A stretch of DNA of 64,000 nucleotides. It comes from Psammoneis japonica (Eukaryota). The position numbers and the translations under genes were made by a program. The notes under the pieces are model-generated. The model made no database searches. It had not been told where the DNA came from and saw only the letters and a program-made list of their open reading frames with translations. Shown piece by piece: positions 21,581 through 64,000 of this stretch; within the stretch, counting starts at the first letter, position 1, and every line of letters begins with the position of its first letter. The stretch covers positions 176,388 to 240,387 of the forward strand of contig QPGO01000100.1 of the NCBI GenBank assembly GCA_008632985.1, given 5' to 3'.

Positions 21581-22603
21581 TTTCACTCGCTACTACATAG
21601 AGTTCAAGGATGAGAAAAAAAGAGAAGTTGAGAAGTTTGAGAAGCACGGGCGCTTGAGCACGCACAACTCACAACGCGAAATTCAACTTCAAAGCCGAAG
21701 GGGGGGAGAAAAATGAATCCCCGGCTATAGTGACGTCATCTTGAGGCATGTCACCATCTAGCGATAGGAAGATTGAGCGCAATGGTCGGGGACATGATCG
21801 GGGAGGCCCTCTTTCGTGTGCCCTTTGTGTTCAGGACATGTCGAAAGTCGAAAGTGACGGACTCGCGCACACATTCCGTGCGATCTCCGTGGATTCTCGT
21901 TTCCTGTGCGATGTTTTTTGTTTTCAGCCCAGCTCAACTCAACCCCAAAATCGGCTGCCTGCCCACGACGACGAGCAGTTGACAGTGCCTGGTGCGCCAC
22001 TCAGCCCCCACAACCATGGACAGGGTCGGGCAGTGTGCACAACACAAATCGTGCGCAGCTGTGTGGGTGGAGATGCAGCAACAAGCTGGCACTCCTTGCA
22101 AGAGCATCAGCAAGCATGTTGAGTGAAGCAACAGAGCTGTTTTTGCCACTGGCACTGCTTCTGGCCGATGTTGTTTACAGCCCTGATGATCTTCTTCCAC
22201 CAAGACTGCCCCTCCACCAGCCTGGCGAACAACAGTCTGGCATGATGGCGGTGTGAGGTGGGTCAGCTGCAAAACACTCCATGCTTTGCATTTCTTTAAT
22301 GTGCCCACCCAAAGTGCCATGAGCTTGCAGAAGGTTTTCAGCTGATTTGTCAGTGTGCATGGTGATGCCACATGTCCAACGCAACTCTCTGCGGATGGGC
22401 TCTGTCAAACCTGACACCCCAACGCAGCTCAGCTCTCTGATGATCCAAGAGCTTGCATTGCTCTCGTTTCACAAGTGTGCACTCTAACAGAAAGCCATGG
22501 GCAAGCAAGTGCTCTCTAGCCATTTGATCATGTGCCATGAAGGCTTCTTCAACTTGGCTGCACTCTGACCTTGGAAGCACCAAAGAAGTCTCCACATGCC
22601 ATG

Positions 22604-22772
22604 TGACAGACAACCGAGATGGGGAGTGCACTCCCTTGTGTCGGACAGACCAGCACAGACAGCATGGAGAGATCCGATGATCTCTCCTTTGCTCACTTTC
22701 TTTTTCATCTAGCACATGATTGTCAACTGTCCCAGACATCCGTCAGATTGTCCCGATGCCGCTAGTCCACAA
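22604..22772 (+). repeat. 5' LTR
   Basis: TGACAGACAACC...GTCCACAA, with 10 mismatches to the 3' copy by manual alignment. Confidence 0.9.
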
Positions 22773-25284: not shown

Positions 25285-25453
25285 TGACAGACAACCGAGA
25301 TGGGGAGTGCACTCCCTTGTGTCGGACAGACTGGCACAGACAGCATGGAGAGATCCGATGATCTCTCCTTTGCTCACTTTCTTTCTCATCTAGCACACGA
25401 TTGTCATCTGTCCTGGACATCCATTAGATTGTCCCGATGCCGCTGGTCCACAA
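25285..25453 (+). repeat. 3' LTR
   Basis: Direct copy of 22604-22772, preceded by a PPT and followed by the TSD. Confidence 0.9.
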
Positions 25454-41849: not shown

Positions 41850-44800
41850 GTTGAAGGGACAACGGCGATAACCCACTCAACTTGAGAGATTTTGCGCCAA
41901 ACCCTGAATGCAAATATTTTGTGCGGACCAACACATCTCAAATTTGGCAACCCAAACCACACCAGTCACCCAACACAAGAAACTCATGCTCCTGGCCACC
42001 AAAGGGAGGCTCCTTCTTTTGGGAAGGTTGGAGTCCCCCTGCACCCAGGGCCTGGACTTGCAGTGCAAGCCAGTTGTTCAGAAAACACAGCCACTGCATC
42101 TTTGGTGACAATGACAAGCACCCTTGTTCTTCTGAGAAAAGGCTTTCTACTTGGCCATCAGCCATGCTGCCCATTTGCTGACCCTTGCTGAGCTTGCTGC
42201 AGCACTTGAATTGCTCATGAGACAATCATGATGAGAATCCAGAAGAAAAAACTCATCCATGGTCTGGCAATTTTAGTGTTGGCATCCTCCAGGGAACAGA
42301 TGGAGAAGCTTGCAGGGCCAGACATGGGTGCTAGAGAGAATCAGGGGTCAGCTCCTCTGACTTGCAACCCACACAACTGGCCTCTTGTGCATTGTTGTGT
42401 GAGCTTTTTTTCAATGAAAGTGTGCATGAGTTGTTCCTGCTCAGTGTCAAATGCTTTGTTGGTGGTGGCACCATCTGCAAAAGTTGCTCCTTTGTGAACT
42501 GAAAAGTGCAATTTGTTGTTTTTTTGTGTGTGTGGTGTGCTGGCAGCAGCAGCCATGGCTTCAAAAAAGCTGACATCAGAAAACCTTCAGTTGGGTGCAG
42601 TGACTTGGTGCAAATGTTTTTGAATGTGCTGCAAGCGGCAATGCAAGAGCAAGCACCAACAGCAACAACAGAGGCAAGCTGGGTGCAAAAAACTCCCTGA
42701 GCACTGGGGCTGTGATGATGACACAAGAACCGGCAGAAGAGAATGAGAGGCAGATCTCAGAGACATCCACTCAGCTGCTCTGTCAATCACATCCAGCACA
42801 GAGTCAGCACGCTGACAACTTTCCCTGATTTGCAGCATTTGTCTGAAAGCAAAAATGGTGCAGGTCAAGGGAAAAAGAAGATTTGCAGCTGCAAACTGTG
42901 TGATGCACAAAGCAGCCAGCCCCTGCACAAAACAACCACAAACAAGGGTAACAGCATCTCCAAAAAAGTCTTTGATGGCAGCATGGCACAGGATGCCAAA
43001 GCACCTTGAACAAAAATTGTTGACAAAAACTGCCAACAGCAGGGGGGCTGGTTTCCAACAAACAATCTTGGTGAGCAACCAAGTCTTGGACCACCCACAA
43101 AGAGCCACAGCAACAAAAACAGTCAAAGCCAAAATGCTGAAGTTTTGCCATGTGAGCTGAGGCAAAGGGGTGTCACCAAGGCAGACAATGCATTAGACAT
43201 GGAGCAAAACAGCAGCCCACCAGATAAATCAGTGCCTTTGCCACACCATTTTTTGCCCCTGAAAAGCACACTCTGTGCAAAGGAAATTCATTGAATGACT
43301 CAATGTTGGAAAAACCTGTTGGGTGTGTGGCAGGTGAGCATTGAGTGATCTCTGCAATGTGGTCACCAAACAAAGCACAGTTGCAGATCCTTGCTCACTC
43401 ACTGAGCTTGCATGCTTTTTCTTTGCTGCACCACTCTCCATTCTTGCCAGGGACCACAGGGTTGTCATTGGCAAAGGGTGGATGGGCCGGGCATGCCACA
43501 AAAAGCACAGCTGGGTGTGACAATGGCTGTGCCAGTGGAGGAAAGAGATTGGACAATGGAGGGCAGTGAGACTTTGTGTGGCCCTTTCTCAGAGTTGCCC
43601 CACTTCTGTCAGTCTTGTTTGGACAAACAAAGCAAGAATGGCAGAGCATCATGCATGTAAATTTGATTGTGGCCAAGCCAAAAATCAGAGTGCACATCAA
43701 CTTGGCAACAAACAAAGCAGTGGCTGCATCTGTGTTTGCCACACAATGGTGCTAAAAGAGGTGGCAAGCAGCACAGTCTCAATCTTGGAGATGGAGGGCA
43801 ATCTGTCCATCTGGTGCATGTTGCACAATGGGTTGACCACGGGCAGCAAAAGTCTTTGGAGAATGGACTGGGCTTTTTGCCTTGACACAAGAGAAATGTG
43901 CCACCAAGCACTGGGCTGGTGGACAATGACAGCAAGCCAGTGTCAATCACTGCAGACAGTGGTGCTCAGTTGCTGCAAGAGACACACAGCAGACTTCTTC
44001 TTGGCACTCATTTGAAAACCACTGACAACATCCAACTGGGAAAACTGACATCCAACACACCTGCAGCTTGAGATGTGTTGTCAGCAGAGCACAGCTGGCA
44101 AGTGTGGGAACCAGATCCAACTTGGAATCTGCAGGCACGTTGGAGCTCAAACAAGAGGTCGCAGATGGGGGAGAATGACAAGTGGACATTGCTGTCAGCA
44201 AACCAAGCTTGATGGCATTCAGCACATGTGGGCATCAAAAGTGGAGGGGAACTCTTCTGGCATGTTGGCACCACCAGCAGCAGGAGTCACAGCTGCAGAG
44301 ACAGGTGCTTGTTTGGCTGGTTTGCACAGATTCTTAGATGCAAAAGGTTTTGCACAAGCACCTCCAGAATGTGCACTGGTGGCCACAATGGGCAATGCAG
44401 TTCCCAAGGAGCAACCATGAACAACTGCATTGCCACAACCACAACTGAGCTGTGCAGCCATGCTGTGCAGCTGCATCCTTTGCAGACATCATGAGGTGAA
44501 GTGTGGTCCAATTGAGTGAACACTTGGACACAGCAGGCATTGCAGCACTTCTTGAAGAGCTGCGAGCAGCAGCCAGGCAAAGGAGATGGTGCCTTGCTGG
44601 GCATTGTGCAGAGCCTCAACAATGTCATCTGCACCATGTGGTGTGAGTTCTTTTTGTCAAATGTCAGAGAAGAAGGTGCACTGATGAGTGTTTTGTCTTG
44701 CAGCATGTGAGAACAAACTTGCTCCAATTCTTGCAATTTGGATGGACTTCAGGGTTGACATGCACATGGTGCACAGAGATTGCAATGACTGCACTTTCTT

Positions 44801-47500
44801 TGTCATGCTCAAGAAATCTTGCTTGACTGCAGTTCTTTGCAGACTTGCAGCACTGAGTCACATTGTCGCACACTTCTCTCCTGGCATCATCAATGCCTTG
44901 AGAGCAGCTTCTTCTGTGATCTTAAAAATGGCAAGTTTGTCAGTGTGGAGTTGCTTGCACACGGCAGAATGCCAGCACTGTCCAGAACAACACAGTCATG
45001 GAAGAGCTTGAGAAATTCATGCTTGGGTTTGGGTTTGGTGCAGCTTGAATCTTACAAGGAAAATTAAGAGCTAAGCTGGGGTTGGCAGGAATCAGGCTCA
45101 GCTTCTCACATCAAGGTGAGAGAGGCATGTTGGAACATTGTTGAAAAGCAAGGTGAATCTCCACACAATGACACAATGGTCAGCCTGGAGCCATCTTGTT
45201 TGTCATTTTGTTTGGTGCCATGGTGGTGTTGGTTGTCAAGAAAAGAGTTGGTTTGCCAACCATCAGAAGGTCAGTGCTGTCCTGTGGCCCAAAAAATGTC
45301 ATGATTCTGAAAAAATCTTGCCAGGAACAGTGCTGAGGCAGACTCAATCAGCCACAACCTGGTCAGAGATGAAAATGGAAACCACAATGTAGAAGAGTTG
45401 GTGCTGTGACACAAAGCAAGGCCACAACCTGTCAGAGTGCCGATGACAGCAACAAGTCCAAAAAGGCAAGCCAGATGCAAAAGACTCCCCAAGCACCAGG
45501 GCTGTGACAACACAAGTGCCAGCAGAAAAGAATGAGCAGTGGACTCATCTCAGAGAATTCTGTCACTGTGTGTGGATCCATTCATCATTCACAGAGTTGG
45601 CACACTGGCACATGACAGAAGCATCCCCAAAGCAGCAAAACACAAGCAGCGCTTGTGCATCACACATTGCTTGCTTTTGTCCCACATGAAAAGGAAACAA
45701 AGAGGCAACAGAGGCAAAGCAACCATCATGAAATGACCAAGCTGCCCAAAAAGAAAAATGGCAATGACAACTGCAAACAGCTGAGGAACTGAACATGACT
45801 GTGACTTCCAACTCCTCAAAGAAAAACAAGTGGCAGTTGCAGAGGCACAGAGCTGCAACTTTTTGAACAGAAGAGACTGTCATTTGGCAAGGAGTGTTCT
45901 GTTCACAGAAAGAGAAAACAGCAGCCATTTGATGACAACAACAACAAACACAGGACAAGCAAGGCTTCTGAGTTCAAGCTCTTGTTGTCAAGTGCAGTGC
46001 TGGTGTGTGCTGCATGCTGTGCTGAACAGAGAGACTCTTGTGAAAGTCATGCATTTGTGGCACATGCAACTCCATGCATCAATGATGGTGTGCAGCTCAC
46101 CTGCACATGTGTCAAAGTTTTCACAATGTGTTGTCTTCGGCCACAGTGCCAAAAAAGTTTCATTGTGCAGACACTTGCCAGTGTGGCTTTTTGTGTTTTT
46201 GCATGCAACACAAGGCTGCAAAACCTGTCAAAGTGCCAACCAATGGCAACACACAGGGGCAAGCTGGTGCAAAAGACTCCCCAAGCACCAGGGCTACAAC
46301 AACATGAGTGCCAGCACAAAAGAGTGAGAGGCAGACTCATTTCACAGTGATCTGCTTGGCTGTCTGGGTTTCTCCATCATTCACAGAGTTTTGGCACACT
46401 GCCATTTGACAGAAGCACCCAAAGCAGCAAAATGCAAACAGCACTTGTGCACCAGTGCACACTGCTGTTGTCTCTGGAAAAGGAAAAACAAAAAGCGGCA
46501 ATGGAAGCAAAATGGCCATGATGAAATTCTCAAGAAAAACAGCAATGACAGTGACAAACAGCTGAGGAACTGAACATTTTGACTTCCACCTCCTCAGAAC
46601 AAAACAGCCAGCAGTTGCAGAGGCACAGAAAGCTGCAACTCTTTGAGCAGAACAGATGCTGTCATTTGGCAGAGGAAGTGTTCTTCTGTTCACAGCAAGA
46701 GAAAACACCATTTGACAACAAACAACAACAACAACAACAACAACACAGCAGCAGCAACAACAACAACAACAACAACAACAAACACAAGATGAGTGAGGCT
46801 GAGCTCAACTTCTTGTCATTGAGTGCACTGCTGTGTGCTGGTGCATGTTGCAAGCATGGAGACTCCTGTTGTGCATGGCTGTTTCAGCTGTGTTGTTGAC
46901 AGAATTTTGCACTTGTGACATGTGCAACTCTTTGCTTCAATGACGGTGTGAGTGCAACCCACCTGTGTGTCAAACTTTCATGATGTGCCATCTGCATCTG
47001 CAGTGCCAAAGAAAGTGTTCATTGTGTGGGAGCACTCTTGCTGCACAGCATGGCTTGTCATGTTTTTGTGCATCTGGCCCATGGCATGGTGCTGTGCAGT
47101 GCATCATCTCCCCTTCTCTTGTTCTTTTGCTTGCCCATCTCTGCTTGATCTGATGTGTTTCAAGGAGCACACACATCCAGAGCTCCCACCAGCTGCATGC
47201 TCACCGTTTTGGTTTTGTTTTTCCAAAAAAGGGAGAGCTGGCTGGTCTTCTCCTCACTCCTGCTCCCCCCCCCCCCCCCCCCCCCTTTGGTTGTGAGAGG
47301 GGTTCTCGCTCTCTCGTTGTTTGCTTGCCACAATGACCTCACCTTTCAGATGCTTCCTTGGGAGACAGCCCCCACAGCCACCACCCGTGGTGTCTTGCTT
47401 TTTTTGGTCAAACTTGTCCTCTCCCCCATCCCACTGCTGAGCTTCACAGTTCTGCCAATGTTTTGCTTTTCAGCTCAAAGGCCGGTGCGAACAGAGAATG
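41850..47500. mobile_element. TpA/CpG-eroded domain 6, including a minus-strand relative of the LTR element's internal ORF
   Basis: Reverse complement of 43640-43735 (CQVDVHSDFWLG) aligns to 24185-24285 (CQVDSHSDFWFG). Near-complete loss of TA and CG. Confidence 0.6.
45420..47030 (+). repeat. Diverged tandem duplication, ~800-bp unit
   Basis: TGCAAAAGACTCCCCAAGCACCAGGGCT near 45476 and 46268. CAGTTGCAGAGGCACAGA near 45834 and 46611. (CAA)n tract at 46717-46780. Confidence 0.8.
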
Positions 47501-47630
47501 AGCAATAAAAAGTGCAAAAAAGTCAAAAAGGAGATAACGGATGACGGTAGGACGGCATCTTTCTCATTTTTTTTCTGCCGCAAGACCATGGCGTGAGTCG
47601 TCACCGCCCGGGAGCGCAGGCAGCGGAAGC

Positions 47631-49555
47631 ATGAAGCATAGAGAGCAATCTAATTGCAACGCCTTGTCGTCATGGACACCCCAAACAACCCGATTGCTAA
47701 AACATGGCGGATCCACAGCTTGGGACGTACTCGATCACGCCATGACGAACAGCTCGGACTCTGATGCAACTTTTACGAATGCATTACGATCTGAATTGGA
47801 AGAATCGGGTCTCCTCGACACCTTGAAAGCTGCACGAACCATGGGAGAAATCAACAATGTGGGCTCTCCTCGGGTTCGTGGTGATTTTAGTACCTTTGTA
47901 TCACGACAAGATCGGCAAACCGCAGACTTTGCACGCAAACATGTTTACTTGTCGCGTCTGATTCAATCCATCGAGACTACTGCTGAACGAGAGCTCGGTA
48001 AGGTCATTACCATTGATCGAAACTACACGTCTGTTCAAGTAGCAAGGTATCCCGGTGATGGCAAGAGTGGGTATAGGCGTCACTGTGATCGAGGCGGTGA
48101 TAACGATAATGAATGTCGTGAAGAAATTCGTAGGGGAGACGCATCGGATAGCAATAACGCACCACAACGGGTTGTAACAGCCGTGTATTATGTGACGCCG
48201 TCCGACTGGAGTGAAACCATGGATGGTGGGTGTTTGAGATTATACGATCGGGATGGGCATTATGATGTTGTTCCTTACTCGAATCGATTGGTAGTGTTCC
48301 GATCCGACCGTGTTTCTCACGAGGTTCTTCCAAGTTTGCGTCGGGATCGCATGGCAATCACGGTTTGGCTGTATGGATGGATCAAAAAGACGCCACAGAA
48401 TCCCTTCTTGTTAGCCCCTGCTGTGGCAGCTGATGCAGAGTCGTCCAACGAAATTTCTACAGACCAACCCGGTGGACCACCACCGCTACCTATCCGCAAA
48501 GCTACCACCAACGCGGATGACAAGAAGAAGACAATCTTTGTGTCTATTGCATCCTACTGCGATTCGGAGTTATTACCCACGTTGATTTCTCTCTTTGAAT
48601 CAGCTAGGTACCCCGAACGTATCTACGTGGGTGTCGTTTGGCAGGTGGACGCGGCCGTAGAGGATTTCAATGCCTGTTGTTCCAACAGGCTTTACAAGAA
48701 GCAATGGTTTTCTCCCTCACAGATTCGAGTCTTGACCATGCATGCTCAACACGCACAAGGACCGTGTTATGCTCGATACTTGTGCCAATCCTTGTGGAGA
48801 GATGAACAGTACGTCTTGCAAATTGATTCGCACATGAGATTTCGAAACAACTGGGATTCCTATCTGGTTGAGCAATTGGAATCGTTACCCGAAGAGAAGT
48901 GTATGCTTACTTCGTATCCTGTTGGATACAGTTTGCCTAATGAGATCCCCAATGAAACACGTGGAACACTGTTGGTACCTTGGAAGTTTGACGAGAATGG
49001 CATGCTGCGACAGCGTGGACGATTGATGAAGGAACGACAGACTTGCACTCCGTGCCACCTGTACGCTGCCGGATTCAATTTTGCTCGTTCCCAGGTGCTA
49101 TGGGATGTTCCCTATGACAATCGTTTGAATTACTTGTTTTTCGGGGAAGAACTTTACATGGCCGTGCGGCTCTATACGTTTGGGTACAACTTGTACGCCC
49201 CTCCAGAATCCGTGTGCTACCATTTGTGGAGTCGTCGTCATCGACCGACTTGTCGAGTTGAATCGCCACGAGAAGCAGAGCTGAAACGGACGAGTCTAGA
49301 GTATGTCAAGGATGTAATGCGTGGAAAGCATGAGATTGGAAGTCACCGAACTGTGCTACAATTTCAACAAGTCCTGGGCGTCGATTTCGAAGCGCAAACA
49401 ATCGAGCAAGATGCAGAAAATGGTGCGCTGGACTCCATCGATTTTGCGGCAAACGCCAACGGATTGTTTGCATCGATAGAGCACGAAAAAGAAGAAGGCG
49501 CAGCAGCGCTAGACCCAAGGCTCAGGCTCTGATTGCTTCATTCCTAGGTTTATAA
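47631..49555 (+). CDS. Fusion of PhyA/EGLN-type prolyl 4-hydroxylase and Gnt1-type (GT60) Skp1-hydroxyproline GlcNAc transferase
   Basis: N-half: RVRGD, VARYPGDGKSGYRRHCD, VTAVYY, GGCLRLY, NRLVVFRSD, HEVLP and RMAITVWLY. C-half: TIFVSIASYCDSE, GPCYAR, LQIDSHMRF, AAGFNF, LFFGEE and YHLWSR. Continuous ORF 47541-49532, with a probable terminal indel extending it to TAA 49555. Confidence 0.88.
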
Positions 49556-49735: not shown

Positions 49736-52700
49736 TCATCCATAGTAACCCTTTCTGATGGTATCCAAAAGCTGCGTCTCGTCAGTAACTGGATCAAATG
49801 ACTTCACAATCACATCTCTGTAGCTGTCCATCTTGTGTGGCGTAACTTCATTTTTTGACCGCAAGAACTTTCTCTCAATTAGCGATGGTTTCACACGGAC
49901 AGAGCCAACTCGATCAAAAATATTCTCACGGCCGACATGGCGAAAGCCCATGCGAAGCGGAGGCATTGCTGTGACTACGTCCCCATCGTTCACGACCCTC
50001 TGAGTGTTTGGCATCATTTTGTTGTACGCCGCTCTAAATGCACCGCATCCAACCCGTGGGCTTCCATAGGTGTAGCAAGCAATCTTGATACTCTCCTTTC
50101 GGTTACTTTCCTCAAGCTGATCCGAACTGTGGGAGTACATACCGACACATGTCGTAGGCACAAAGTGTGGCCTGAGCCCCACCAAGGCTGTGTCCCGTGA
50201 TGAGTAGTCGTCCCGGACTTGCAAGGAGCTCCTCTCGAACTATTGTGTGCACCTGCCGCCGGACACGGTTATAGCTACTCCAAAAACCAAAGTGTATCTG
50301 ACCAGCCCCTTCGATCTCATCTGACCTTTGGTGGCTGATTCGAGATAGTCCGGAACCCCACCCTTGCCATGTTTGGGAAGAAGATCAACCAGACGTATCT
50401 TCTTAATTTCGCCCCTACGAATCTTTGCCTCAACAACATCTGGAGAAATGTATTCAATGTTGGCAGTGCGTGTCTTCCATGTTCCGCATCTTCTGGAGCC
50501 GAAGTCGTGAGAAACGTGTCTAAATCCACCAAGACCTTGGACGACATCACATCAGTTTGCACCTGTTTCTTGGTAAGGGTTCCGCGAAAAGCGATGATAA
50601 GATCGTTCGTTTCCGTGTGCCTTAAAATGATTGCTCTGGTGTTATGCATATCTGTTCCTTCGGGTTCAGCCACATGGGCCACAACGGTGCATCCCATTTC
50701 CAAAGTGCTTTCCCAAGGGAGATAGCCTGGAGCGCTACCAGAACCACCTGCGAACCTTGTTTCACGTTCCTGGTCTTGTGTCCCTTGCGACGAACTATCG
50801 ATGTCCTTAGACTTGTTCTCTTGGGCAGAAGAATTTGTCGGCGTCGTCTCAATATCTTTACCGAGAAACTCCTGATTTGTAATTTCTGACGAATCACGCG
50901 AGACTTCTTCAAAAACTGGTCTCTTCCTTCTGAGCTGCCATTCCTTGAAATTACAGCAGTGACGGGTTTCTTCTCCACACCTGGCTTCTCTTTTGCTTTC
51001 ACGTCTGGGCTTTCACAATCTATTTCAAATGGTAAATAAACCTCTTTTGAACAAACCATCAATAGCCGTGTCAACTCGAGAATCATGAGAGATTCGCTGA
51101 ATCTCCGTCTTTCTCTGCCTCTTCTTCAGAAACATAATGTGTCTTTGCCTTCTCACTTGACCTACCTAATGATTCCGGCGGGAGGAAGAATAATTGGAAA
51201 GTAACGAAGAACACGAGCCCAAAAACCTTCTGGTAGAAACTTGTAAAACCACCATTCAAAAAATACATTCGATCCAATGAAGATACGTATTTACCGAGAG
51301 TGTCGAGGTGCGCGTAGTAAACTCTCTCATCCACAATGACGTCAATCACATTCACAATGATCATAATGAACTCCACAAGAACCCAGAGACCAGTTACCCA
51401 GAAAAAGAAACGTGATGACAGCTGAATGGGACGACTCAAGGCGTATGGTAGGTAGTTGAGCACCCTTTGACTCCTTCTGTTTGCCCAAACGTAGTAACCA
51501 AATGCAAAAACATTAAGAGCCAAGAGGAGTGTCAGAAACACAGATATAATCACTTGATCCCTGCGAATCCAATCTTCAGGAGCTGTAACATAACCCTGAC
51601 CACCGAGCTCGCTTGCAGTACCCGGTTCGTCCCAACCCGATATGCTGGGAAATCGATAAACATGTGCTAGAGCATATGTCACGAATAAACAGATACAGAA
51701 CAAACTTTTGCACCCGTAGAAGCTCCACTTTGAAACCACGAATCGCCTAGGCGCGTCGCAGAAGCAACCAAATACAAAGTAGAGCAAAGCCTGTCCAAAC
51801 GCCCCGACAACAAAAGCGGCAACCCAAGCCCCCTCGGCCAAAACTGCGTCTTCGTTACGTTGTCTGCGAAATTGCAATCCAACAATGATCGGGTTCACGC
51901 TCAAAATGAATCCGACGGAGGATACGATGAGCCATTTATTTTCTGTTGCCCACTCTTTGCATCTACCGCATATCTTGTAGATACTGTAAAACCACCACAG
52001 AACAAAAACGATGTATGCAGCCAGCACAATGGTGGTAACAATAGAGTCGGCAATCGGGTATTTCGCCTCTCCGGATATAACTAGGCTTGTCAGTATAACG
52101 CTGTCGGTATTGTTTGCCAATAAGGCTGTAGAAACTGCGCCACCAGGATCCCCCAAAAGTGCAATCCTCCATGCAAGAGAGTCTATTACCTCCTCACCCA
52201 GCAAATACACATACACAACGACTAGAGGGAGTAAAAGAGAAGCAAGTACACATTGGAAATTAGACGCTTTCTGATGAATAACAAGTGACGATACAAAGAG
52301 TAACAGTCTCGCTTACCTCGTGCTTTAAACGATCTCCCACTGACTTGCCGCTTGGGAGAGCGAATATTTTCATTGTCAATGACCATCACTCTCCAGTTGC
52401 CAATATTGTCGCAATCCTCTCCACGGAGGCACCCATATCCCTCAAGACGAACAGAAAACGGTTCATCTGCAACACTTGCGGGCCAGTCCTGCTCGGCAAA
52501 AAACTCTAAATCAACGTAAACCACATGGAATTCATCCCTCGCATCCCTCCCTTTTTGATAGCCAAACCAAGCCATGGCGACAATATCATCCCAGACAGGA
52601 TGTAGCTGTGGGTTTGCACCATAGTCAAGAATAGAGTGGTCAGCCAAAAAGACTCCAGAGTCAATCTGGTGAGATGTAAACGGTGGAGTACCCTGTATGG

Positions 52701-53442
52701 CCCCATATCCTTTCCAGTCGGACACATTGATTCCCGTCGAGACAACTCCAGTGTTTGCCAGTAGCACTGCTTCACTTGAATTAACGGTATCATAAGCAGT
52801 GCATGTTCCATTTGGAAGGAGCAAACAGAGTGGACCAGACGTGTCATTTACGGGAACAATCGCACTTGGACGGAATTCCGAGCGATTTCCATAGACACTG
52901 AGAACCTCAAAGATAATCGAGGCGAAGAATACCGCATGGACAGCGTAAAGAGCCCTCCGAATCACGTGATTTGGAGCAACCTCGAGATAGAATATGTTGC
53001 TTGTGAGGAGATGCGACCCCACAGCTTGATTTCCAGCCTTTCCTCTACCCTCAGTCAGTTTGGGAAGTTCTGCTTCTTCCACATCATCAGCTCGTACAGG
53101 GATTTCAGGCTTTTGTTCCGAAACAGAGAGCTGTTCCACGTCATCAACATCAGCCCCTCCAGATACTTCTTGATCTTCTTGCGAAACAGGAGACAGCACC
53201 CCAGCGTTATCATCCCGTTCCTCTGCATCTGCTTCTTCGAAATTAGCCATACTACCAATATCGAGCACTATTTCTTCACTAACCAGTCGCTGTGATGACA
53301 CAAAGCGTCCTTTTGATTCGATATCCTCTGCTGCTGTCTCACGTCTTCGTCGTGAGGTCCATGCTCGTGAAATGCTCCCTCGTAGACTAAAATTTGTACT
53401 CTCCATCTCATCAGGTTCCATATCTGACAACTTGCTACTCAT
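49736..53442 (-). CDS. Multi-pass membrane protein with C-terminal class-3 lipase domain, paralog B (intron near 52222-52316, indels)
   Basis: Shares NQAVGSHLLT.NIFYLEVA, ANPQLHP.WDD, SGWDEPGT and LPYALSRP.QLSSRFFF with paralog A. Lipase motifs AFRGT, TGHSLGG (near 50180, off-track frame) and YTYGSPRVG. Confidence 0.78.
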
Positions 53443-53819
53443 CTTGCATACAGCTAGAGCTAAGAGGAAACAATCTAATGCAGTACATACAGTAATGAGA
53501 TGCGAACGCCATGTTGGCAACGTTGATGTTGTTGTGTCTTGTTGCTTCGTTCGATCTTTTTTTTTCTGCGAAGTACATCGGACGGTTAAATGACGTCATC
53601 GCTTCTTCAAAAGTTCCCTCCGACAGGCGTCAGTCGCCTTTTTGACCACGCGAGAACCCAATGTTTGTGTGAAAGTGCCGACCAACGCCACTGCAGACGA
53701 CAGCTGCTGTGGTTACCGCACTTGATTGAACGACATCACCACCGTGTCGTCGTCGCAATTGCATATTTTTTTGTCGGACTTGGCGGTTCAACAACAACTT
53801 TCTCAGCATTCAAAAAATC

Positions 53820-54746
53820 ATGCCGGAAGGCAAATCGATAGCGAAAACGTTGGAGCCGTTTGTATGCGGCGGCTCGGCTGCAACATTTGCATCCATTTGC
53901 ATCCACCCCATGGACCTGGCCAAGGTGCACATGCAGTTGTTTGGGCAGATGAATCCAGGCAAGCCCGTTCCTGGGTTTCCTTCCATCATTGGGGGAATCA
54001 TCAAGAAGGAGGGTCCGTTGGCGGTTTACAGAGGCGTCGATGCTGCAATTGGTCGCCAACTCGTCTACGGTACGGCAAGGATCGGACTGCATCGAACCTT
54101 TTCAGACAAATTGGTAGAAATCAACGAGGGAAAGCCCATCAGTTTTGTGCAGAAGGCTCTTTCGGGAATGGCTAGTGGAAGTATTGCTGTATGCATTGGA
54201 ACTCCATTTGATATCGCGTTAGTGCGCCTTCAGAGTGACGGAATGGCTGATCCCAAGGATCGAAGAAATTACAAGAATGTCTTTGATGCTCTCATCCGAA
54301 CTGCTTCAGAAGAAGGTGTCGGAGCACTTTATGCCGGCTTGGCTCCCAATGTTCTGCGTGGAATGGCAATGAATGTGGGAATGTTGGCATGTTATGATCA
54401 AGCCAAGGAAGTTGTTGCAAGTCTCTTGGGCGATCCCATGACCAATGGTCCATCGCTTCCTACTCGACTAGGGTCGTCTGCCACGGCTGGCTTTACAGCT
54501 GCGCTTTTTAGCTTGCCCTTTGATCTCATCAAGAGTCGTTTAATGGCACAGAAGCCTGACCCAATGACCAAGGAGTTGCCATACAAGGGCGTGCTTGACT
54601 GTGCAATGAAAATTGCAAAGGCGGAAGGACCGGCGGGCTTCTTTGCTGGTTTTTCTGCCTACTATGGACGCTGTGCTCCACATGCCATGATTATTCTTCT
54701 CTCGATTGAATCCATTACAAACTGGTATCGTAAGGCGTTCAACTGA
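53820..54746 (+). CDS. SLC25A11: Mitochondrial 2-oxoglutarate/malate (dicarboxylate) carrier, SLC25 family
   Basis: Three Px[DE]xx[KR] signatures (PMDLAK, PFDIALVR, PFDLIKSR), RQLVYGTARIG and RRNYKNVFDAL. Confidence 0.9.
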   Translation: MPEGKSIAKTLEPFVCGGSAATFASICIHPMDLAKVHMQLFGQMNPGKPVPGFPSIIGGIIKKEGPLAVYRGVDAAIGRQLVYGTARIGLHRTFSDKLVEINEGKPISFVQKALSGMASGSIAVCIGTPFDIALVRLQSDGMADPKDRRNYKNVFDALIRTASEEGVGALYAGLAPNVLRGMAMNVGMLACYDQAKEVVASLLGDPMTNGPSLPTRLGSSATAGFTAALFSLPFDLIKSRLMAQKPDPMTKELPYKGVLDCAMKIAKAEGPAGFFAGFSAYYGRCAPHAMIILLSIESITNWYRKAFN

Positions 54747-54929
54747 TATTTCGACTTTACTTTTGCAAACTGAATGCGATGGATGGTAGACCTTCTAGAT
54801 GAAGTCTGAAATAAACGCTTTCTCTCCATGTGTATATTGTACTCGCTGTTGCAGTACTACCACTAGAGGTACAAATTCGAAATGCAGTAGTCTTAACTTG
54901 GGATATCGGTTGTCATATACCGTACGCAA

Positions 54930-57900
54930 TCCGACTGACTTCTTGTTTATCCCCAACCCGCGCGGAGGGAAAGCGAAATGTCCCGGAATTCGCAGCGGTC
55001 GTGGTGGACACGAAACTCGGACCCTCAGAGCATCCAGAGTTGAATGCAAGATGCACGGCATTGGCCATGCATTGGCAGCCTTAACACAACGTTGCAACGT
55101 CTCAACGACACATCCTTACATCTTGTGCACTCGTGGCTGACACTACAGAGGAAGTTGTTCATCCAGAAGCAGTTGATGCAAGTTTTCAGTGCCAGGTGAC
55201 TGGCTTGTTGCTTTTGCTCCTGCTGATGACAGAAAAGTGGCAATGTCAATGAGCACCTCTTTTCAGTGGACAATGCTCAAGCACAAAAGGAGCACTTTGA
55301 GAGGGAGGGTTAAAGCTGGTGAAACTGTGATGTGGAAACTGGAGAAGAAAGGCAAATTTTGCAGCAGCCAAACACAGAGGTGAGCAGAGCCAGCCATGAT
55401 TTCCTCAAGTCATGTGAGAGAATGTTGTGCTGCCTGCCCTTGGCAGATGCTGACAGCTCAGTGGCACAATGGGAGACAACAACATGAAGCACAGTGATTT
55501 CCTGAACCTTGGGTTCAACTGAGACCTTTTTGCACATGTTCTCAGTGAATGGCACTGGAGCTGATGCCATTCAAGAGATTGAAGCAGTTGAGAGTTGAGA
55601 CAAGTTTTCAGTGCCAGATGATGGCTGGCTTGTTGCTTTTGCTCCTGCTGATGACAGTAAAGTGAGAACATCAATGAGCCCCTCTTTTCAGTGGACAATG
55701 ATCAAGCACAAAAGGGGCACTTTGAGAGAGGGGTTGAAGCTGGCAAAACTGTGATGTGGAAACTGGAGAAAAGAGAGGCAAATTTTTCAGCAGTCAAACA
55801 GAGGGCAGGTGAGCAGAGCCAGCCATGGTTTGCTCCTCAAGTCATGTGAGAGAATGTTGTGCTGCCCACCCTTCTTGGTAGATGCTGATGGCTCAGTGGC
55901 ATGATGGGTGACAACAACATGAAGCATGGTGATTTCCTGACACCTCAGTTTCAACTGAGACTTTTTTTGCATGGTGTTGCAGCCAAGATTTTGTCAATGG
56001 ACAAACTGTTGCACACCACACAACCAAGCCATCAGGCATGAAATCTTGGAATTGACTTGGGCACTCAAGCTTCAAACAATGTGTGGCAAAACTGCAAACA
56101 CTCCTCTTTTTGGTCAGACCAAATGGTGCTCAACAATGAAATTTTTGAAGATTGGCTGCAACCAGTGCAAGATTTTCTGCAAGTGGCAGGCACAAACAAA
56201 TCTTGCAACTCACAATGCACTCACCACCAGGTTGGGAGTTTGAGTGGGGGGGGGGGACTTCTGTCAGCAAACAGTTTTCTTCCAAAGCCAGCAAAAAGAT
56301 TTGGAGAGGCTGGATGAAAATTCATGTTTGAGGGTGCCACAAAATGTGCAACAGATGACACAACAAGTGGCTGTGACACAGCAGTGGACTTTTCTGCTGC
56401 TCTTTTGAGTCCACAAATTGCAGAACATGGAGAGAGCAAGACCAGCTCTGTGATGGCTGGCACAGAAGTTTGTGAGATGACTGCTGTGACATTGATGTTC
56501 TTTTTTCCACCATGACAGACCCTTGAGCACAGTGGAGGCATTGTTGAGAAACTGTGGGGGTGTCGGGCAAAGCCGTGTGCATCACCCTCTGACAACAACA
56601 AAAGCAAACACATGAGCACTGACCAAGGCTGCACCATGGAGCCTGCAAATGTGCTCTTCTCCAATGAACAAGTTTGACATTTTGGGGCTCATTTTGCTGG
56701 CAGCTGGCCATTGTCCATCCAGCAAAAGAAACAAATGAGAGTCAGGTTTTTTGCTGCCCAAAGATGGGGCAAAACATGCTGCTCTGGCAGCTTGTAAAGT
56801 GAAAGGTTTGCAAACACATGCCATCTTCTGCCAAAATGGCAACCCATGTGTTTTTTGGAAACACTTGCTTTGGTGATGCATCATTGTTTTGAGCATGGGG
56901 CATGGTGGAGCAGATGGGTGGTTTTTGTTTTGGGATCAAAACAAAGGATGTTGGTGAGCAAGTGCATTTGTTGAATGGCAGCATGGTGGAAAGCCACTTG
57001 TTTTGCAGCTGGGAGAGCAAGGTTTTGCTGAGCCAACAAAGGAGCTGGCCACCAAGCTTTGGTTTCATTTTCTTGTGGGTTGTTTGGCAGGGCCGGGTTG
57101 CACCTGAAAATGCGGCTTCAGCTGTGAAGTTCAGCATCATTGTCAATGACCCTGATTTTGGCTCTGTGTGCTGTGTGCTGTCAGCCAAGCCATTCAATGT
57201 TCCATGTGAAAAGGCCAAGCAATGCTGAGAGTGCTCAGAATGTTTGAAAGAGACTCACCCCAAGCTCAGGGCATGCAACAACAACCAGTGCAAGAAATGT
57301 AAAAAATGCAGTGCATGGCATTGCATGAGCAAGGAAACTGTGCACTGCTGAATGAGAGCAAGCTGCCCCCTGTCAAGACAAAGAGGAGCAAGGTTGTGAG
57401 CAAGGCACTCAGAACTGGAAAACTTGCTGACGGCAAAATTGACCAGCTGCTTTGTGCCACACCGCACAAAGTTGCAGTTGCCAACCTTGTTGAAGCCACT
57501 GAAAAGCTTTTCAACAGGATTGCTTCAGAACAATGCACACCAACTGGCAGCTGTGTCTCCAGAACAAATGGTTGCTGTCAGCCCAGTTGCACAAATCTCA
57601 TTAGAAGATTCTTTGCAGTGGCTGCCACAGAAGCAGCTGACACAGGAAAGATTTTTTTGACTTGTTTGAATGATGGCTGAGAGTGGCATCTTTCTGAGAG
57701 AGATGGGGATGAGTGTGTTCCTTGTTGACAGTGCTGGCAAGTGAAGCCACAAAGCTGCCAGACAAATTGCCATGTTGGTTGTCAAAGCAACCATGATGAA
57801 CACATTCATGAACAGAAGAACACTGACCATGCTCAATTTGGGAGTGGACAAAGAGGAAGACATCAAATTATTTCACTGGGTGGGCAGCTCCAGGTGCTGA

Positions 57901-60900
57901 CTGCTGCAATCAGGCATTGCACAAGACAACAGCCTGCAATGTGTGAGCAAAAATGCACTTGTTCTGAAATGAAAAACTGGTCACTCTTCTTGTGCCAAAC
58001 AGATTTTGATGAAGTTGACACCAAGTTGAAAGCACTCCAAAGCATGATGGAATTTCTCCATGCTGGGAACATGCCAATGACAGAGACCCCATTGCCATGC
58101 TCTTGCAAATTGTGAAAAGCCTTTGCAAACTGCAACAAACCTTTGTTTTCCACTTTTGTCATGTGGCAAACTGTTGCCATCAATTGCAAAATGGCAGAAG
58201 TTCCACATCAAAGGCCCCGTTAATAAAATGACTGAGATGCTTGCTTTCACTGCATTCTCTCCCAAGTTTGAGGCATGTTGTTCCAGCAGCAGCAGCAGCT
58301 GTGCTGCAAGTTGTGAGCACTGCACTGCTGCATGGTTCATGGCATGGGGCCAGGGGCTTGGCCAGGTTGGGGGCCACCTGATGCTCAATGCTTGCAGCAG
58401 CATCACTCACTTTCCAACTGACTTCTTGTTTGTCCCCAACCCGCACAGAGGGGAAGCAAAATGTCCCTGCCAAATCCGGAATTTGCAGCAGTCGTGGTGG
58501 ACACGAAACTTGCACCCTCAGAGCATCCAGAGTTGAGTGCACGGTGCATGGCATTGGCCATGCATTGGCAGCTTCAAGACAACATTGCAACGTCTCAATG
58601 ACACATCCTTGCATCTTGTGCACTCATGGCTGACACAAAGTGGAAGAAGTTGTTCATCCAGAAGCAGTTGAGGTGAGTTTTCAGTTCTCTCACATGACTT
58701 GAGGAAATCATGCACAACAACATTCTCTCACACAACTTGAGGAAATCATGGCTGGCTCTGCCCACCCGTCTGTTTGACTGCTGCAAAATTTGTCTTTCTT
58801 CTCCAGTTTCCACATTGCAGTTTCACCTGCTTCAACTCCCTCTCAAAGTGCTCCTTTTGTGCTTGAGCATTGTCTGCTGAAAAGAGGGGCTCATTGACCT
58901 TGTCACTTTCCTGTCATCAGCAGGAGCAAAAGCAACAAGTGGTCATTGCTGACAGCTCAGCGGCACAATGGGTGACAAAAACATGAAGCATGGTGATTTC
59001 CTGAACTTCAGGTTCAAAGCTGAAACCTTTTTGCATGGTGTTGCAGCCAAGATTTTGTCAATGGGTGAATTGTTGCACTGTGCAACCAAGCTGTCACGCA
59101 TGAAATCTTGGAATTGACTTGGGCACATCTCAAGCTTCAAATGACATGTGGCAAAACTGCAAACACTCTCTTTGGCTGGATCAAATGGTGCTTGACAGTG
59201 AACTTTTTTGAAAATTGGCTGCAACCAGAGCAAGATTTTGCTGTGAGCAGCAGGGGCAAACAAAGAACCTCATGACTCACAATGCGCTCACCAGGTCAGG
59301 AGTTTGCATGGGGAAAACTTCCATCAGCAAACAGTTTTCTTGCAAAAAAGTTTTGGAGAGGCTGGATTGCAGAAATTTGTCCACAAAGCTTGCAACAGAT
59401 GACAATGACCAGCTGCAACACAGCAGCAGACTTTTCTGCTCTCAAGTTCACAAATTGCAGGACACACAGAGAGAGCAAGATCAGCCCTGCGATGGCTCGC
59501 ACAGAAGTTTGTGAGGCAGGTGTTGTGACATTGACACACCATTTTGCATCATGACAGACCCCCTTGAGCACAGCAAAGTTGTTGTTGAGAAACTGTGGGG
59601 TTGTGGGGCTAAGCTGCATGCATCAGCACTCTCTGACAACAACAAAAAAGCAAACATGAGTGCTGGCCAAGGCTGCAACATTAAGCCTGCAAATGTGCTC
59701 ATGTGCAATGCACAAGCAGGACATTTCGGAGCTCATTTTGTTGGCAGCTGGAAATTGGCCATTCTCATCACATCCAGCAAAAGAAACAAGTGGGAGTCAG
59801 GTTTGTGATGCCCAAAGATGGGGCAAAACATGCTGCTCTCACAGCTTGGAAAGTGCAAGGTCAGCAAACACATGTCATCTTCTGTCAAAATGGCAGCCCA
59901 GGCATTGGCAACACTTGCTTTGGTGATGCATCATTGTTTCAAGCAAGGAGCATGGGGCATGGCAGAGCAGATGGGTGGTTTTTGTTTTGGGCTCAAAACA
60001 AATGATGTTGGTGAGCAAGTGTGTTTGGATGGGAGCATGGGAAGCCACTTGTTTTGCAGCTGGGAGAGCAAGGTTGCTGGGCTGACAAAGGAGCAGGCCA
60101 CCAAGCTTTGGTTTCATGTTTCATCATTTTCATGTGGGTTGCTCACCAGGGGTTGCACCTGAAAATGCAGCTTCAGCTGTGAAGTTCAGCATCATTGTTG
60201 ATGATCCTGATTTTGGCTCTGAGTGCCATGTGTTGAGCCAAGCCATTCAATGTTTTCTCAGAAGATGAGCCCAAAATGTCTGAAAAAGACTTGCTCCAAG
60301 CTCAGAGCATGCAACAACAACCACAACCAGTGTAAGAAATGAAAAAAAGCAAGCAGTGCATGGCACCATGAGGAAACCATGCCCTGCTGAGTGAAAACAA
60401 GCTGGTCTTTGAAAAGACAGTCAAGCCATGTTTCATGCCCCCTGTCAAGACAAAGAGCAAGGTTGTGAGCAAAGCACTCAAAATGGGGAAATGGGAAAAC
60501 TTTTTTGAAGGCAATGTTGGCCAGCTGTCTCTGTGCCACATTTCACAAAGTTGCAATTGCCAAACCTCTTTGAAGCTGCTGAAAAGCTTTTCAACAGGGT
60601 TGCTTTAGAACAATGCACACCCACTGGCAGCTGTGTCTCTGGATCAAATGGTTGCCATCAGTCATTGCAAAAATCTTTCAGAAGATTCTTTGCAGTGGCT
60701 GTCACAGAAGCAGCTGTCACACAAAAGATTTTTGACTTTTTTGAATGACTGGAAGTGGCATCTTTCTGAGAGAGATTGGAACAAGTGTGTTTGTTGACAG
60801 CACTGGCAAGTGCAGCCACAGAGACAAAAGAGTTCCCACGTTGGTTGCCAAAGCAACCATGATGAACACACTGAACAGCACAAGAACACTGGCCATGCTC

Positions 60901-61480
60901 AATTGGGGAGTGGAGGAGGAGGAGGAGGACAACAAAACATTTTACAAGGCAGGCAGCTCCAGGTGCTGACTGCAGCAACCAGCTTTTGCACAAGACAACA
61001 GGTGCCAGCCTGCAATGTGTGAGCAAAAATGCACTTGTTCTGAAGAGAAACACTTGCCACCATTGTGCCAAAGAAATTTTGATGAAGTTGACACCAAGTT
61101 GAAAGCACTCCAAAGCATGATGGAATTTCTCCATGCTGGGAACATGCCAAGAACAGAGACCCAGTTGCCGGGCATTTGCAAATTGTGGAAAGCCATTGCA
61201 AACTGTGACAGACCTTTGTTTCCACTTTCACCATGTGGCAAACTGTTGCTGTCAATTGCAAAATGGCAGCACCACCACAAAGGCCCTGCTGGTGAAATGA
61301 TGACTGAGGTGCTTGCTCTCACTGCCTTCTTCTCTTCCAAGTTTGGGCCCATGTGGCTCCAGCGGCACCAGCAGCTGGCTGCACTGCAAGTTGTGAGCAC
61401 TGCACTGCACCGCTCATGGCACAGGGCCAAGAACTCAGCCAGGTTGAGGAGCACCTGATGCCCAGTGCTTGCAGCATGAC
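54930..61480 (+). repeat. Tandem ~3.1-3.5-kb duplication (54930-58400 / 58410-61480) with internal sub-duplication and inversion
   Basis: 54931-55180 matches 58413-58680. 55880-58400 matches 58945-61480 (TTTTGATGAAGTTGACACCAAGTTGAAAGCACTCCAAAGCATGATGG near 58004 and 61077). 55180-55460 matches 55600-55900. 58740-58940 is the reverse complement of 55200-55405. Confidence 0.85.
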
Positions 61481-64000
61481 TTGATTGAAATGTCCTCACA
61501 AAAGGCACAGGCAGTGCCAGTGAGGCAGCGGTTCTTGCAAGTCCTTTTCCTGAAATGCGTGCCTGAGGAGACAATGCCACCAGCTGCCTCAAGTCATTGA
61601 GGCACAGCTCACAAGCCACCCAACACAAGATTTCAGCCATGCAGCAGTGGGGAGATTGGTCAATGCCAGCCATGGCACAAAAAAGAGTTGTGGAATGTCA
61701 GCATGCTCAAAGACTGTTGGTTGTCAAGTTTGCATCTGCACACAACCCCAGCCCACACTGGACACATTGGTGCCATTGACTCAATTTTTAACAGGAGCAA
61801 GAGTGGCTGCACCCTCACTGCTGTTTTTGCTTGCACTTCAACAGGAAGCAATCCAAGGCACCAGATGTCAAGATGCCTGCCAGTCATCTCTCATGTTTCT
61901 TTGCAGGCAAAACTCCAAAAAAATTCATGCACTTTGTTGTGTGGGTGCCACGTGCCCCCGCAAAACAAACACAATGCCTGCGAGCACCAGAAAATGTGTG
62001 TGGTTGGCATGCCACCACGGCCTCCACACACAGTTGCACCTCCCCTTCCAACAGGCCAGACAACAAAATGAAACCTGATTTCTGTGTTTAAAGTGCTGCT
62101 GCACTTCTGCCCTGCAACTCTGGCAACAAGCTGACCCACACCTCCAGCGCATCATTTGCTCTGGCAGGGATGTGCAACAGTTGGTCAAGATTGATGCCAC
62201 AAGGCTGTGGCACCCACCAGAAACAGCTGGCAGCAACAAAAACAGGGCCAGCAAATGAGACTTCAAAAGAAGCAAAGCACTTGACACTGCAGTTGGGCCT
62301 TTTTCTTGGGATTGGATCTGGCGGCAAAGGCAAAACAGGCAGTCTGGAAAAGTTTTAACATGAGGTGGAGCAGGACATGACAAATTAACCACAACCTCAT
62401 GCTGAGCTGGTCTCAAATTCAGACTGGTGGGAGCAGCAATGATGGAGGATTGTTTGCCACATGGAGTCCTCAAGAACTTAAACAGACAATGGGCAGAAGG
62501 GGAGTTGTTGATGCCGGAGAGGCATGGACCAAGAGCAGTTGACAGTTCGGCAAGTTGATCATCTGAAATGACCTTTGAGACATGCAGAAAATGTGCTGAA
62601 ACTTGTGCAAACTTGTCGGCACACAGAAGCAGACAGGCCAATGCACGCTGAGTTGGACCCAACTTCAAACTCCTGAAAACAGCCACATGAACCAGGGGAC
62701 TTCAATTGACAACAGGTGGAAGGGGGGTTGTTGACACTTGAGAGGTGTGGAGAGAGAGCAGTTGACAGTTTTGCAAGTTTTCCATCTAAAATGACTTGCA
62801 CGACACGCAGAATTTGCACTGAAACTTGCATGAAAACTTTGCACACAAGAAGAAAAAATGCTGAAAGAACACCACCGAGCAAATGAACCACATCAACAAA
62901 GAATTGGCGGTCTGAACAGGCAGGCAGGAACCATCATCACACCATCAGAGAAAGGTGACATCTGTGCCAGAGCTTGTTGCATGGAAAAATGCACAGAGGG
63001 TGCAGCAGCCGCAAAACTGAGGCAGAATTGTCCAACAGGCCAGACAGTCATGGCACTGGTGTGAACCACATGATGACAGCAAATGTCATGCCAGATTTCA
63101 CAGAGCAAGCAAGCAGAGAGAGCAGCCACAGACGCTTTGCCCACATTTCAAGTGCAACTCAAACAATGAAGCTTTCTGCTGCCTCAAAAAACACCCACCT
63201 TGCTTTTTGCTGTTGAAGCAACCAGAGTGCTCCCAGCCAGATGTGATGCACCAAGTTTTGTCTCCTTGTCAAGCTCTTCTCACAGTCCCTTCCATGTTGT
63301 GCCAAGCTGCCATCCACAACAAATGGCTTTTGCACATCAGAGCAGAAAGCTTTTTTCACAAACAATGGGCTCCAGAACAGAGTGTTGCAAATGGCAGACT
63401 TGTGACAAGGTGAAAGCCGCATCACACACTGACAACCACTTGCTCTTCTCTGTTTGTTGGCACCCATCTCTCTTGCTCTTTTTTTTCTCCTCTTTAAACA
63501 CAGCTTCAAGCCAAATCTGGAACAGCATGAAACATCTGCTGGAGCTCAAAAAAGGGTCTGTTGTTTGATTCTGGCATCCAGATTTCTCAGAATGACAAAG
63601 CGACAGGTGAGCTGTTTTGGTCTCATCCTCGAGGCACCTGTCAAAAGCTTTCCTTTGCAAAGACAGGTTCCACCCCCCCCCTTTAAGTGGCTTGTTCTCT
63701 TGCACCATCATGTGCAACCAAAGAGATGGTTTGAAGTTTGCAGCAGTTGCAGCACACTGATTGCAAGTGCACCAGTCATTGCTTCTTTGCAGTGGTCTGG
63801 CACTCCTGTCGAAACAATCATGTTTCTTCTTGAGCTGTTGCTGTGATGCCAGCAAATGATGGGTGGACACTTCTGCACCTGGCATGTGCAAATCAGAAAC
63901 TGACAGAGGTGGTGAAAACAATGCTGGACTTGCCAGACAACAAAGAACTGGATGATGAGTGCCCGCATTGCCAACAACTGACAATCTAAATTGGGTGGCA
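61480..64000. repeat. Continuation of TpA/CpG-eroded domain 7, with a ~225-bp tandem pair at 62495-62845
   Basis: AGAGCAGTTGACAGTT near 62532 and 62755. TA and CG nearly absent. Confidence 0.6.

Follow-up and report, generated by a model that had tools for sequence, protein, structure and literature searches.

The stretch analyzed here, referred to as the window, comprises 64,000 nucleotides (nt) from Psammoneis japonica (assembly GCA_008632985.1, contig QPGO01000100.1, positions 176,388 to 240,387 of the forward strand). The products of its long open reading frames (ORFs) are typical eukaryotic proteins, namely ribosome recycling factor, glycerol-3-phosphate dehydrogenase, sulfate permease, EMP70, class-3 lipases and a mitochondrial carrier. 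The carrier gene, of the mitochondrial 2-oxoglutarate/malate type (Pfam Mito_carr, E = 8e-55), occupies 53730-54746 on the forward strand, its stop codon ending at 54746, and its product is 87% identical to an Entomoneis paludosa protein and 82% identical to an SLC25A11-like protein of Phaeodactylum. Since the ORFs are ordinary eukaryotic ones and the carrier is closest to proteins of raphid pennate diatoms, the window, judged by its coding content, is diatom nuclear DNA. Gene-bearing DNA alternates across the window with seven domains, delimited by a two-state model, that are stripped of the dinucleotides CG and TA. Immediately downstream of the carrier gene, the left end of a tandem duplication lies just outside the last of these domains, and the two copies of this end, one on each side of the domain border, are the main subject of what follows.

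The duplication spans about 3.5 kb and is tandem, not dispersed. Self-BLAST resolves unit 1 (54930-58412, forward strand) into a block A, a block B1 (55204-55436), a local duplication that pairs 55171-55531 with 55593-55967, and a block C (55883-58399), and unit 2 (58413-61476, forward strand) into A′ (58413-58685), B′ (58709-58939) and C′ (58947-61476). B′ is inverted relative to B1. C and C′, which lie on the forward strand and are both eroded, share 83.7% identity over 2416 gap-free columns. At the head of each unit, 54930-55190 aligns with 58413-58685 at 85% identity over 273 columns (BLAST). The first 215 nt of unit 1 (54930-55145, forward strand), termed the edge copy, lie outside the domain, start 184 nt past the carrier stop codon and hold 16 CG and 4 TA steps. 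Their counterpart, the core copy (58413-58637, forward strand), lies 3.3 kb inside the domain and contains a 10-nt insertion relative to the edge copy. Self-BLAST finds no third copy, the edge/core pair being the sole match in the window. A public sequencing run, X1, contains 92% of the sampled words from the window, and its word-based contigs have a depth of ~60 for unique DNA. Contig depth in X1, a poor measure of copy number, gives no sign of extra copies over the pair, with values of 69-107 in the rows listed (69 at 54671-55137 and ~105 at both 55138-55604 and 58407-58873). An X1 contig of half depth (30.2 vs. ~60) has 32 other letters in place of part of the core copy, 58441-58516, and may be an allelic variant or another diverged copy.

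Substitutions between the two copies are concentrated in CG and TA steps and run in one direction. The 261/273-nt block contains 28 substitutions, 22 of which fall in 54931-55145. Half of these 22 place an edge CG opposite a core CA (7) or TG (4), and three more place an edge TA opposite a core TG (2) or CA (1); the remainder consist of one TA opposite AA and seven other changes. The core copy has thereby lost 11 of the 16 CG and all four TA steps. No reverse transition (core CG or TA, edge TG or CA) occurs, giving a direction of 14:0 (binomial p = 1.2e-4), and a single core CG faces an edge AG, via a transversion. Differences affect 15 of the 40 nucleotides in edge CG or TA steps vs. 7 of the 175 others (Fisher odds ratio 14.4, p = 6e-8); as a rough relative rate from this pair, CG loss amounts to 1.16 per site, where the background is 0.04 differences per nucleotide. 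An earlier note, made from the letters of this DNA, had described the two stretches as homologous and listed individual CG and TA losses between them. All of its motifs are present, and its list holds 8 of the 11 CG losses and all three TA transitions, the changes at 55018, 55056 and 55091 being absent from it. Its statement that the core copy has lost both dinucleotides is overstated, since five of the 16 CGs are kept and one is new. These six CGs compare with 1.3 expected from the surroundings (p = 0.002). A core copy less CG-poor than its surroundings fits entry into the domain only at the duplication, with erosion from then on.

The domain border, at 55145/55146, falls inside the duplicated unit, and homology between the units continues to 55190 and beyond. 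To the left of the border the changes are confined to the core copy. To the right, CA opposite TG at 55146-7 and at 55179-80 indicates that both copies eroded independently. The edge copy has its last CG at 55132 and its last TA at 55143, which confines the switch to ~15 nt. The border is not seen in this assembly alone, since an X1 contig (record 3) covers 53813-55229 and has 0 other letters there, although X1 may be the data from which the assembly was made. Duplication left two identical copies, so that a trans-acting signal guided by homology, such as that of repeat-induced point mutation (RIP) or of small RNAs, would be expected to hit both, yet the edge copy was not hit. This suggests, from one pair, a process that is targeted in cis according to position and extends as far as a fixed barrier. 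The position dependence asserted in the earlier note is borne out to this extent, by a single natural experiment.

The same division into two kinds of DNA is seen throughout the window. By dinucleotide odds ratio, 1-kb bins fall into two classes that have the same GC content. Gene-bearing bins show ratios of ~0.9-1.1 for CG, ~0.5-0.7 for TA and ~1.1-1.3 for TG/CA; in stripped bins the corresponding values are 0.02-0.2, 0.01-0.1 and 1.8-2.3. Expressed as densities, gene-bearing DNA has 48-61 CG/kb and 28-39 TA/kb, and the stripped domains 3-23 CG/kb and 1-7 TA/kb. The two-state model places the stripped domains at 10836-12277, 14316-15511, 21976-26673 (patchy), 29766-31023, 37906-38561, 41929-47477 (full, CG 3.4/kb, TA 2.7/kb) and 55146-64000, the last of which continues past the window end. 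With 5.3 CG/kb and 2.6 TA/kb, vs. ~55 and ~36 in the gene DNA used for comparison, and with TG and CA odds ratios of ~1.9, the eroded domain that had been noticed around the core copy is real. Domain borders are abrupt once the order of pyrimidine-purine steps is written out, and by our reading of the ORF and domain maps all 13 lie ~50-1600 nt away from a long ORF. The 9,855 nt of non-ORF DNA that lie beyond the TA-poor domains retain 53 CG/kb and 51 TA/kb. Because this DNA is uneroded, the stripping is not a genome-wide bias masked by coding selection.

Repeats within the domains give the polarity of change. If CG or TA decays independently in two copies, TG should come to stand opposite CA at half of the sites, a double difference that is otherwise rare. 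Of the 236 adjacent double differences in six intra-domain repeat pairs, 86 are of this class. The 2.4-kb bodies of C and C′ contribute 52 of 143 (the next class has 6), the repeat 45417-45947 / 46211-46731 in domain 41929-47477 contributes 13 of 51, and four other pairs contribute 7 of 9, 3 of 5, 2 of 2 and 9 of 26. In three pairs of gene paralogues that are 25-33% diverged and served as negative control, the class accounts for 9 of 249 (2/68, 1/90 and 6/91). The excess inside domains implies that CG and TA were present at each duplication and were then lost separately in each copy. Such independent loss excludes the opposite polarity, in which TG and CA would be ancestral and the edge copy would have gained CG and TA. 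The directionality claimed in the earlier note thus holds both in the pair and in the domain repeats. There is no strand-processive signal in C/C′, where the 52 sites form 25 runs vs. 26.7 expected (z = -0.47).

Loss of both dinucleotides together best reproduces the composition of the domains, in which the odds ratio of TA is 0.04 and that of CG 0.08 (TA is 0.55 in normal DNA). When all CG and TA steps of normal DNA are converted at random to TG or CA in a simulation, the resulting odds ratios are 2.01 for TG and 1.91 for CA, against 1.91 and 1.85 observed, and r = 0.96 over the 16 dinucleotides. Conversion of CG only or TA only fits more poorly; CG-only conversion gives 1.73 for TG and 1.65 for CA. 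The two losses nevertheless differ in extent. Separate hidden Markov models (HMMs) for TA and CG assign 27,146 of the 64,000 nt to TA-poor DNA and 20,331 nt to CG-poor DNA, the latter wholly nested inside the former: 6,815 nt are TA-poor only and 0 nt CG-poor only. Summed over the listed HMM segments, the TA-only-poor DNA has ~5.6 TA/kb and ~49 CG/kb. The two models outline a TA-poor domain with patchy CG loss at 21774-26895, within which 22739-23384 has CG 27 and TA 2, and 23998-25443 has CG 58 and TA 11. In the core copy, TA loss (4/4) is no less complete than CG loss (11/16). CG loss and TA loss are two separable components, of which the TA part is the wider and probably at least as fast.

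The earlier note further inferred that an active gene protects the sequence near it. The carrier is covered by an RNA-like contig (record 13, 53813-54784) of a second run, X2, in which spliced contigs occur. One of these joins 52221 directly to 52317, and the skipped 95 nt (52222-52316) indicate an intron that links ORFs 51086-52312 and 52225-53595 (reverse strand) into one gene; X2 is therefore RNA-like despite its label 'DNA?'. The cover ends at 54784, and the blank beyond it is no evidence for silence of the domain. The RNA-like cover of the carrier and the position of borders near ORFs agree with protection by nearby gene activity, but only as a correlation, since a fixed chromatin border would look alike. 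The overall interpretation of the earlier note is thus supported in part: direction and position stand, and gene protection does not go beyond correlation.

What the domains contain gives little indication of their origin. In Pfam searches of 150 of the 151 ORFs of at least 110 aa (63433-63843+ being left out), 16 ORFs matched, all outside domains. Among 150 of the 169 domain ORFs of 62-109 aa there were three matches (E = 0.006-0.01), all below curated cut-offs. Each smaller TA-poor domain contains one long orphan ORF (260-471 aa) that belongs to no Pfam family; the orphan ORFs are 11239-12021 (+), 14666-15637 (-), 22908-24323 (+), 24221-25258 (+) and 26107-27012 (+). They have 0 internal stops, vs. 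4-21 in each other frame, and two of them were searched further, without homologues: of 8000 candidates, none is related to 22974-24320 (449 aa) at E ≤ 0.01, and 24221-25255 has no usable match in a protein atlas. Loss of TA deletes TAA and TAG stops, so that the orphan frames stay open; they may also be real or recently dead genes, perhaps foreign. Toward the end of the last domain, 61676-63076 has a summed contig depth of ~940-1340 vs. ~60 for unique DNA, with many loose ends at 62081-62093 and at 62976. Within it, 62476-62629 resembles 62699-852, and a 258-aa ORF is without informative relatives; a full HMMER search with 61928-62701(-) returned three multi-stretch matches, to unrelated repetitive proteins only. 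This region looks like a high-copy element of ~0.9-1.4 kb within the stripped domain. There were 0 matches in Rfam, 0 tRNA genes and 0 tandem repeats in 54000-64000.

Two observations concern gene-bearing DNA elsewhere in the window. The domain end at 47477 lies just 61 nt upstream of the ORF at 47538-49529, which encodes a fused 2OG-Fe(II) oxygenase and GlcNAc-transferase; with so short a gap, the promoter region of this gene must sit in DNA free of CG and TA. A block of three to four genes (a class-3 lipase and unknown membrane proteins) is duplicated at 17714-21244 and 49752-53031, with 66-75% DNA identity and both copies in normal DNA; this block served as the negative control for TG/CA differences.

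Taken together, these data make it probable that two context-specific transition processes, turning CG and TA into TG or CA, are restricted by position to gene-free domains. The pattern, its direction, the domain limits and the sharp border inside a repeat are established. For the CG part the simplest chemistry would be deamination of 5-methylcytosine in CG-methylated silent DNA. The TA part may consist of A-to-G changes at TpA like those measured directly in Bigelowiella natans, possibly through enzymatic deamination of adenine. Acting together, both processes would remove nearly all CG and TA steps in the domains. A tandem duplication starting 215 nt outside the domain would then have copied ordinary border DNA to a position 3.3 kb inside it, where the transplanted copy would have lost 11 of 16 CG and four of four TA steps while its twin at the border lost none.

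Several points weigh against this reading or narrow its basis. The natural experiment consists of one pair, 215 nt and 22 differences, and without an outgroup copy its 14 sites are polarized individually by the general direction only. The edge copy has a lower TA density (4 in 215 nt) than other non-coding DNA, and selection could be preserving it in the role of a terminator or regulatory element. X1 is possibly the same data as the assembly, and the platform of the run is not on record. The 300 ORFs scanned across the window include no transposon or virus Pfam family, although heavy mutation could hide such an origin. In the stripped domains, taken as 41901-47400 and 55151-64000, the two-rule model fails for AT (0.71 observed vs. 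0.93 simulated) and GC (1.38 vs. 1.08), which may reflect either a further process or a different starting composition. Lone transitions between eroded copies are commonest after G (45/487 vs. 91/2089 in other contexts), and two of the three extra A-to-G changes of the core copy turn GA into GG. The AT/GC misfit and the excess after G may together represent a third, weaker component. Finally, the chemistry, the chromatin basis and any defence role against foreign DNA are what we infer from sequence.

Other explanations account for parts of the same evidence. Ordinary decay of methylated CpG would explain 11 of the 14 directional changes, and TA, whose scarcity would then be natural or inherited and not mutational, is under-represented throughout the window (0.55 in normal DNA). 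This explanation is nonetheless very unlikely: the odds ratio of TA in the domains (0.04) is below that of CG (0.08), all four edge TAs are changed in the core copy, three of them by the expected transition, 6.8 kb of DNA is TA-poor with normal CG, and the TG and CA ratios of the CG-only simulation are too low. A contrast case is provided by a metagenome contig (L018) with a carrier 60% identical, in which 2001-4976 has 0-4 CG but 23-49 TA per 500 nt. There, in a different organism, CG alone has been depleted and TA stays plentiful. A process resembling RIP would be triggered by homology and mutate both duplicate copies. In fungal RIP, homology triggers mutation in both copies over the duplicated length, and CpA is converted to TpA so that TA rises. 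The pair does sit in a 3.5-kb tandem duplication, and diatom DNMT4 is related to the fungal RIP factor RID (PMC9998398). However, the edge portion at 54930-55145 is unchanged and its twin changed, so that 215 nt within the duplicated unit were left untouched. TA is destroyed here whereas RIP makes TpA, most domain DNA has no second copy in the window, and X1 depth over 55138-61675, poor measure of copy number as it is, stays at 59-107 vs. ~60 for unique DNA. Such a process is as improbable as CpG decay alone.

The domains might instead have inherited their composition, as inserted transposons or viruses that already avoided CG and TA. The abrupt borders, the orphan ORFs without homologues and the high-copy element at ~61676-63076 (depth ~1000) would suit this origin. 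It is highly improbable given the TG/CA discordances in all six intra-domain pairs, which place the loss of CG and TA after duplication and independently in each copy, and given the edge/core pair, in which ordinary border DNA also underwent later loss. Slightly more credible than such inheritance, and still very doubtful, is a general erosion of non-coding DNA from which the edge copy, only 184 nt beyond the carrier stop, was kept by purifying selection as the carrier terminator or a regulatory element. Non-ORF DNA outside domains is uneroded (TA 51/kb and CG 53/kb over 9,855 nt), the onset of erosion is abrupt (~15 nt), and selection is not expected to keep all 16 CG and four TA steps and nothing else. 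The least probable explanation, to the point of being extremely unlikely, is an artefact in which modified DNA was miscalled in sequencing or assembly and CG and TA were read as TG and CA. Modified bases cause systematic miscalls in some long-read data, and neither for the assembly nor for X1 is the platform recorded. X1 contigs at a depth of ~60 show 0 other letters over 53813-55229, which takes in the gene, the edge copy and the border, and four domain pieces are matched by X1 contigs with 0-1 other letters. Moreover, the repeat copies differ by indels, by transversions and by TG vs. CA, whereas a consistent miscall would not produce such differences.

Two transition processes confined by position to gene-free domains, the reading preferred here, can be compared with several known systems. 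The closest is Bigelowiella natans, in which, according to the text of a recent preprint, two integrated viral regions mutate ~1000-fold faster than the rest of the genome in mutation-accumulation lines (Mettrop et al., 2026, bioRxiv 10.64898/2026.01.13.699255). In the giant-virus (nucleocytoplasmic large DNA virus, NCLDV) region, 210 of 211 single-nucleotide mutations were A-to-G or T-to-C, and these hit TpA and turned it into TpG or CpA; windows poor in TpA and rich in CpA+TpG form 124 clusters in the genome, and the preprint puts forward an ADAT2-like adenine deaminase (10.64898/2026.01.13.699255). The diatom resembles this system in the change of TA to TG or CA on either strand, seen in three of the four edge TAs as a historical trace and not as a rate, and in the restriction to discrete regions, here seven TA-poor domains, with the rest normal. 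The long-term trace described in the preprint, of TpA-poor, CpA+TpG-rich clusters with unannotated ORFs, is also similar. The differences are considerable. B. natans is a rhizarian, and 'CpG' occurs 0 times in the main text of the paper, whereas the diatom loses CG too. Change in the diatom is not exclusive to TpA, with 11 of 14 directional changes at CG and a CG odds ratio of 0.08. As the preprint reports it, TpA in the giant-virus region of B. natans is only about halved and the targets are recognizably viral; in the diatom the TA odds ratio is 0.04 and the scanned domain ORFs contain no transposon or virus Pfam family. In the diatom, in addition, a duplicated border piece indicates targeting by position.

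The CG component resembles methyl-CpG decay, in that CG is turned into TG or CA in silent non-genic DNA and neighboring genes are spared, but such decay leaves TA alone, whereas TA loss in the diatom is wider and more complete than CG loss. With RIP in Neurospora and other fungi the diatom shares massive transitions in a dinucleotide context, in non-genic or repeated DNA, and a compositional scar. It differs in sparing one duplicate copy, in the fall of TA to 0.04 and the rise of CA to 1.85, and in that A:T pairs are hit too. Among diatoms, transposable elements of Phaeodactylum are described as CG-methylated via DNMT5a, and diatoms are described as carrying DNMT4 enzymes related to RID, of unknown function (both PMC9998398). 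Spontaneous mutation in Phaeodactylum tricornutum shows an overall GC-to-AT bias, with CG among the mutagenic contexts (PMC6604790). That species is thus similar in being a diatom with mutagenic CG, and differs in that the available text of the same paper reports no TpA hypermutation or hypermutable domains. Our literature search turned up no description of diatom DNA stripped of TA or of TA and CG together. Among metagenome relatives, 26 carrier loci were found, and the 10 of at least 2.4 kb (67 kb) have no TA-free domain, a sample too small for prevalence. The combination of a decay resembling that of methyl-CpG with a TpA hypermutation resembling that of Bigelowiella, in a diatom, saturated and with sharp borders defined in cis, appears to be new.

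A more far-reaching possibility, which we put forward tentatively and regard as rather unlikely, is that the domains record a diatom genome-defence mutator tied to chromatin domains. It would erase both self-complementary pyrimidine-purine steps, CG and TA, from silenced DNA, spreading in cis to a barrier that is sharp to ~15 nt. The candidate agent would be either one ADAT2-like deaminase acting on both A and C, or a TpA editor coupled to CG methylation. If this holds true, the system would be a stramenopile counterpart of fungal RIP and of the Bigelowiella system, and targeted editing of silent or foreign DNA would be widespread in the supergroup of stramenopiles, alveolates and Rhizaria (SAR).

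Regional, context-specific hypermutation is known from fungi, as RIP, and has just been reported from one rhizarian alga, in the 2026 preprint. A saturated diatom version would show that the TpA process is not confined to one species. In the diatom it is joined by CG loss, and its borders, sharp at the nucleotide level, lie a few hundred bases from genes. The duplicated border piece bears on how such mutation is aimed, a matter left open by the work on Bigelowiella, and points to chromosomal place rather than homology or foreignness. There are practical consequences as well. Stripped domains mask an origin from transposons or viral inserts in homology searches, and ORF counts in them are inflated because TA occurs in two of the three stop codons. 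Transgenes landing in such domains would be mutated.

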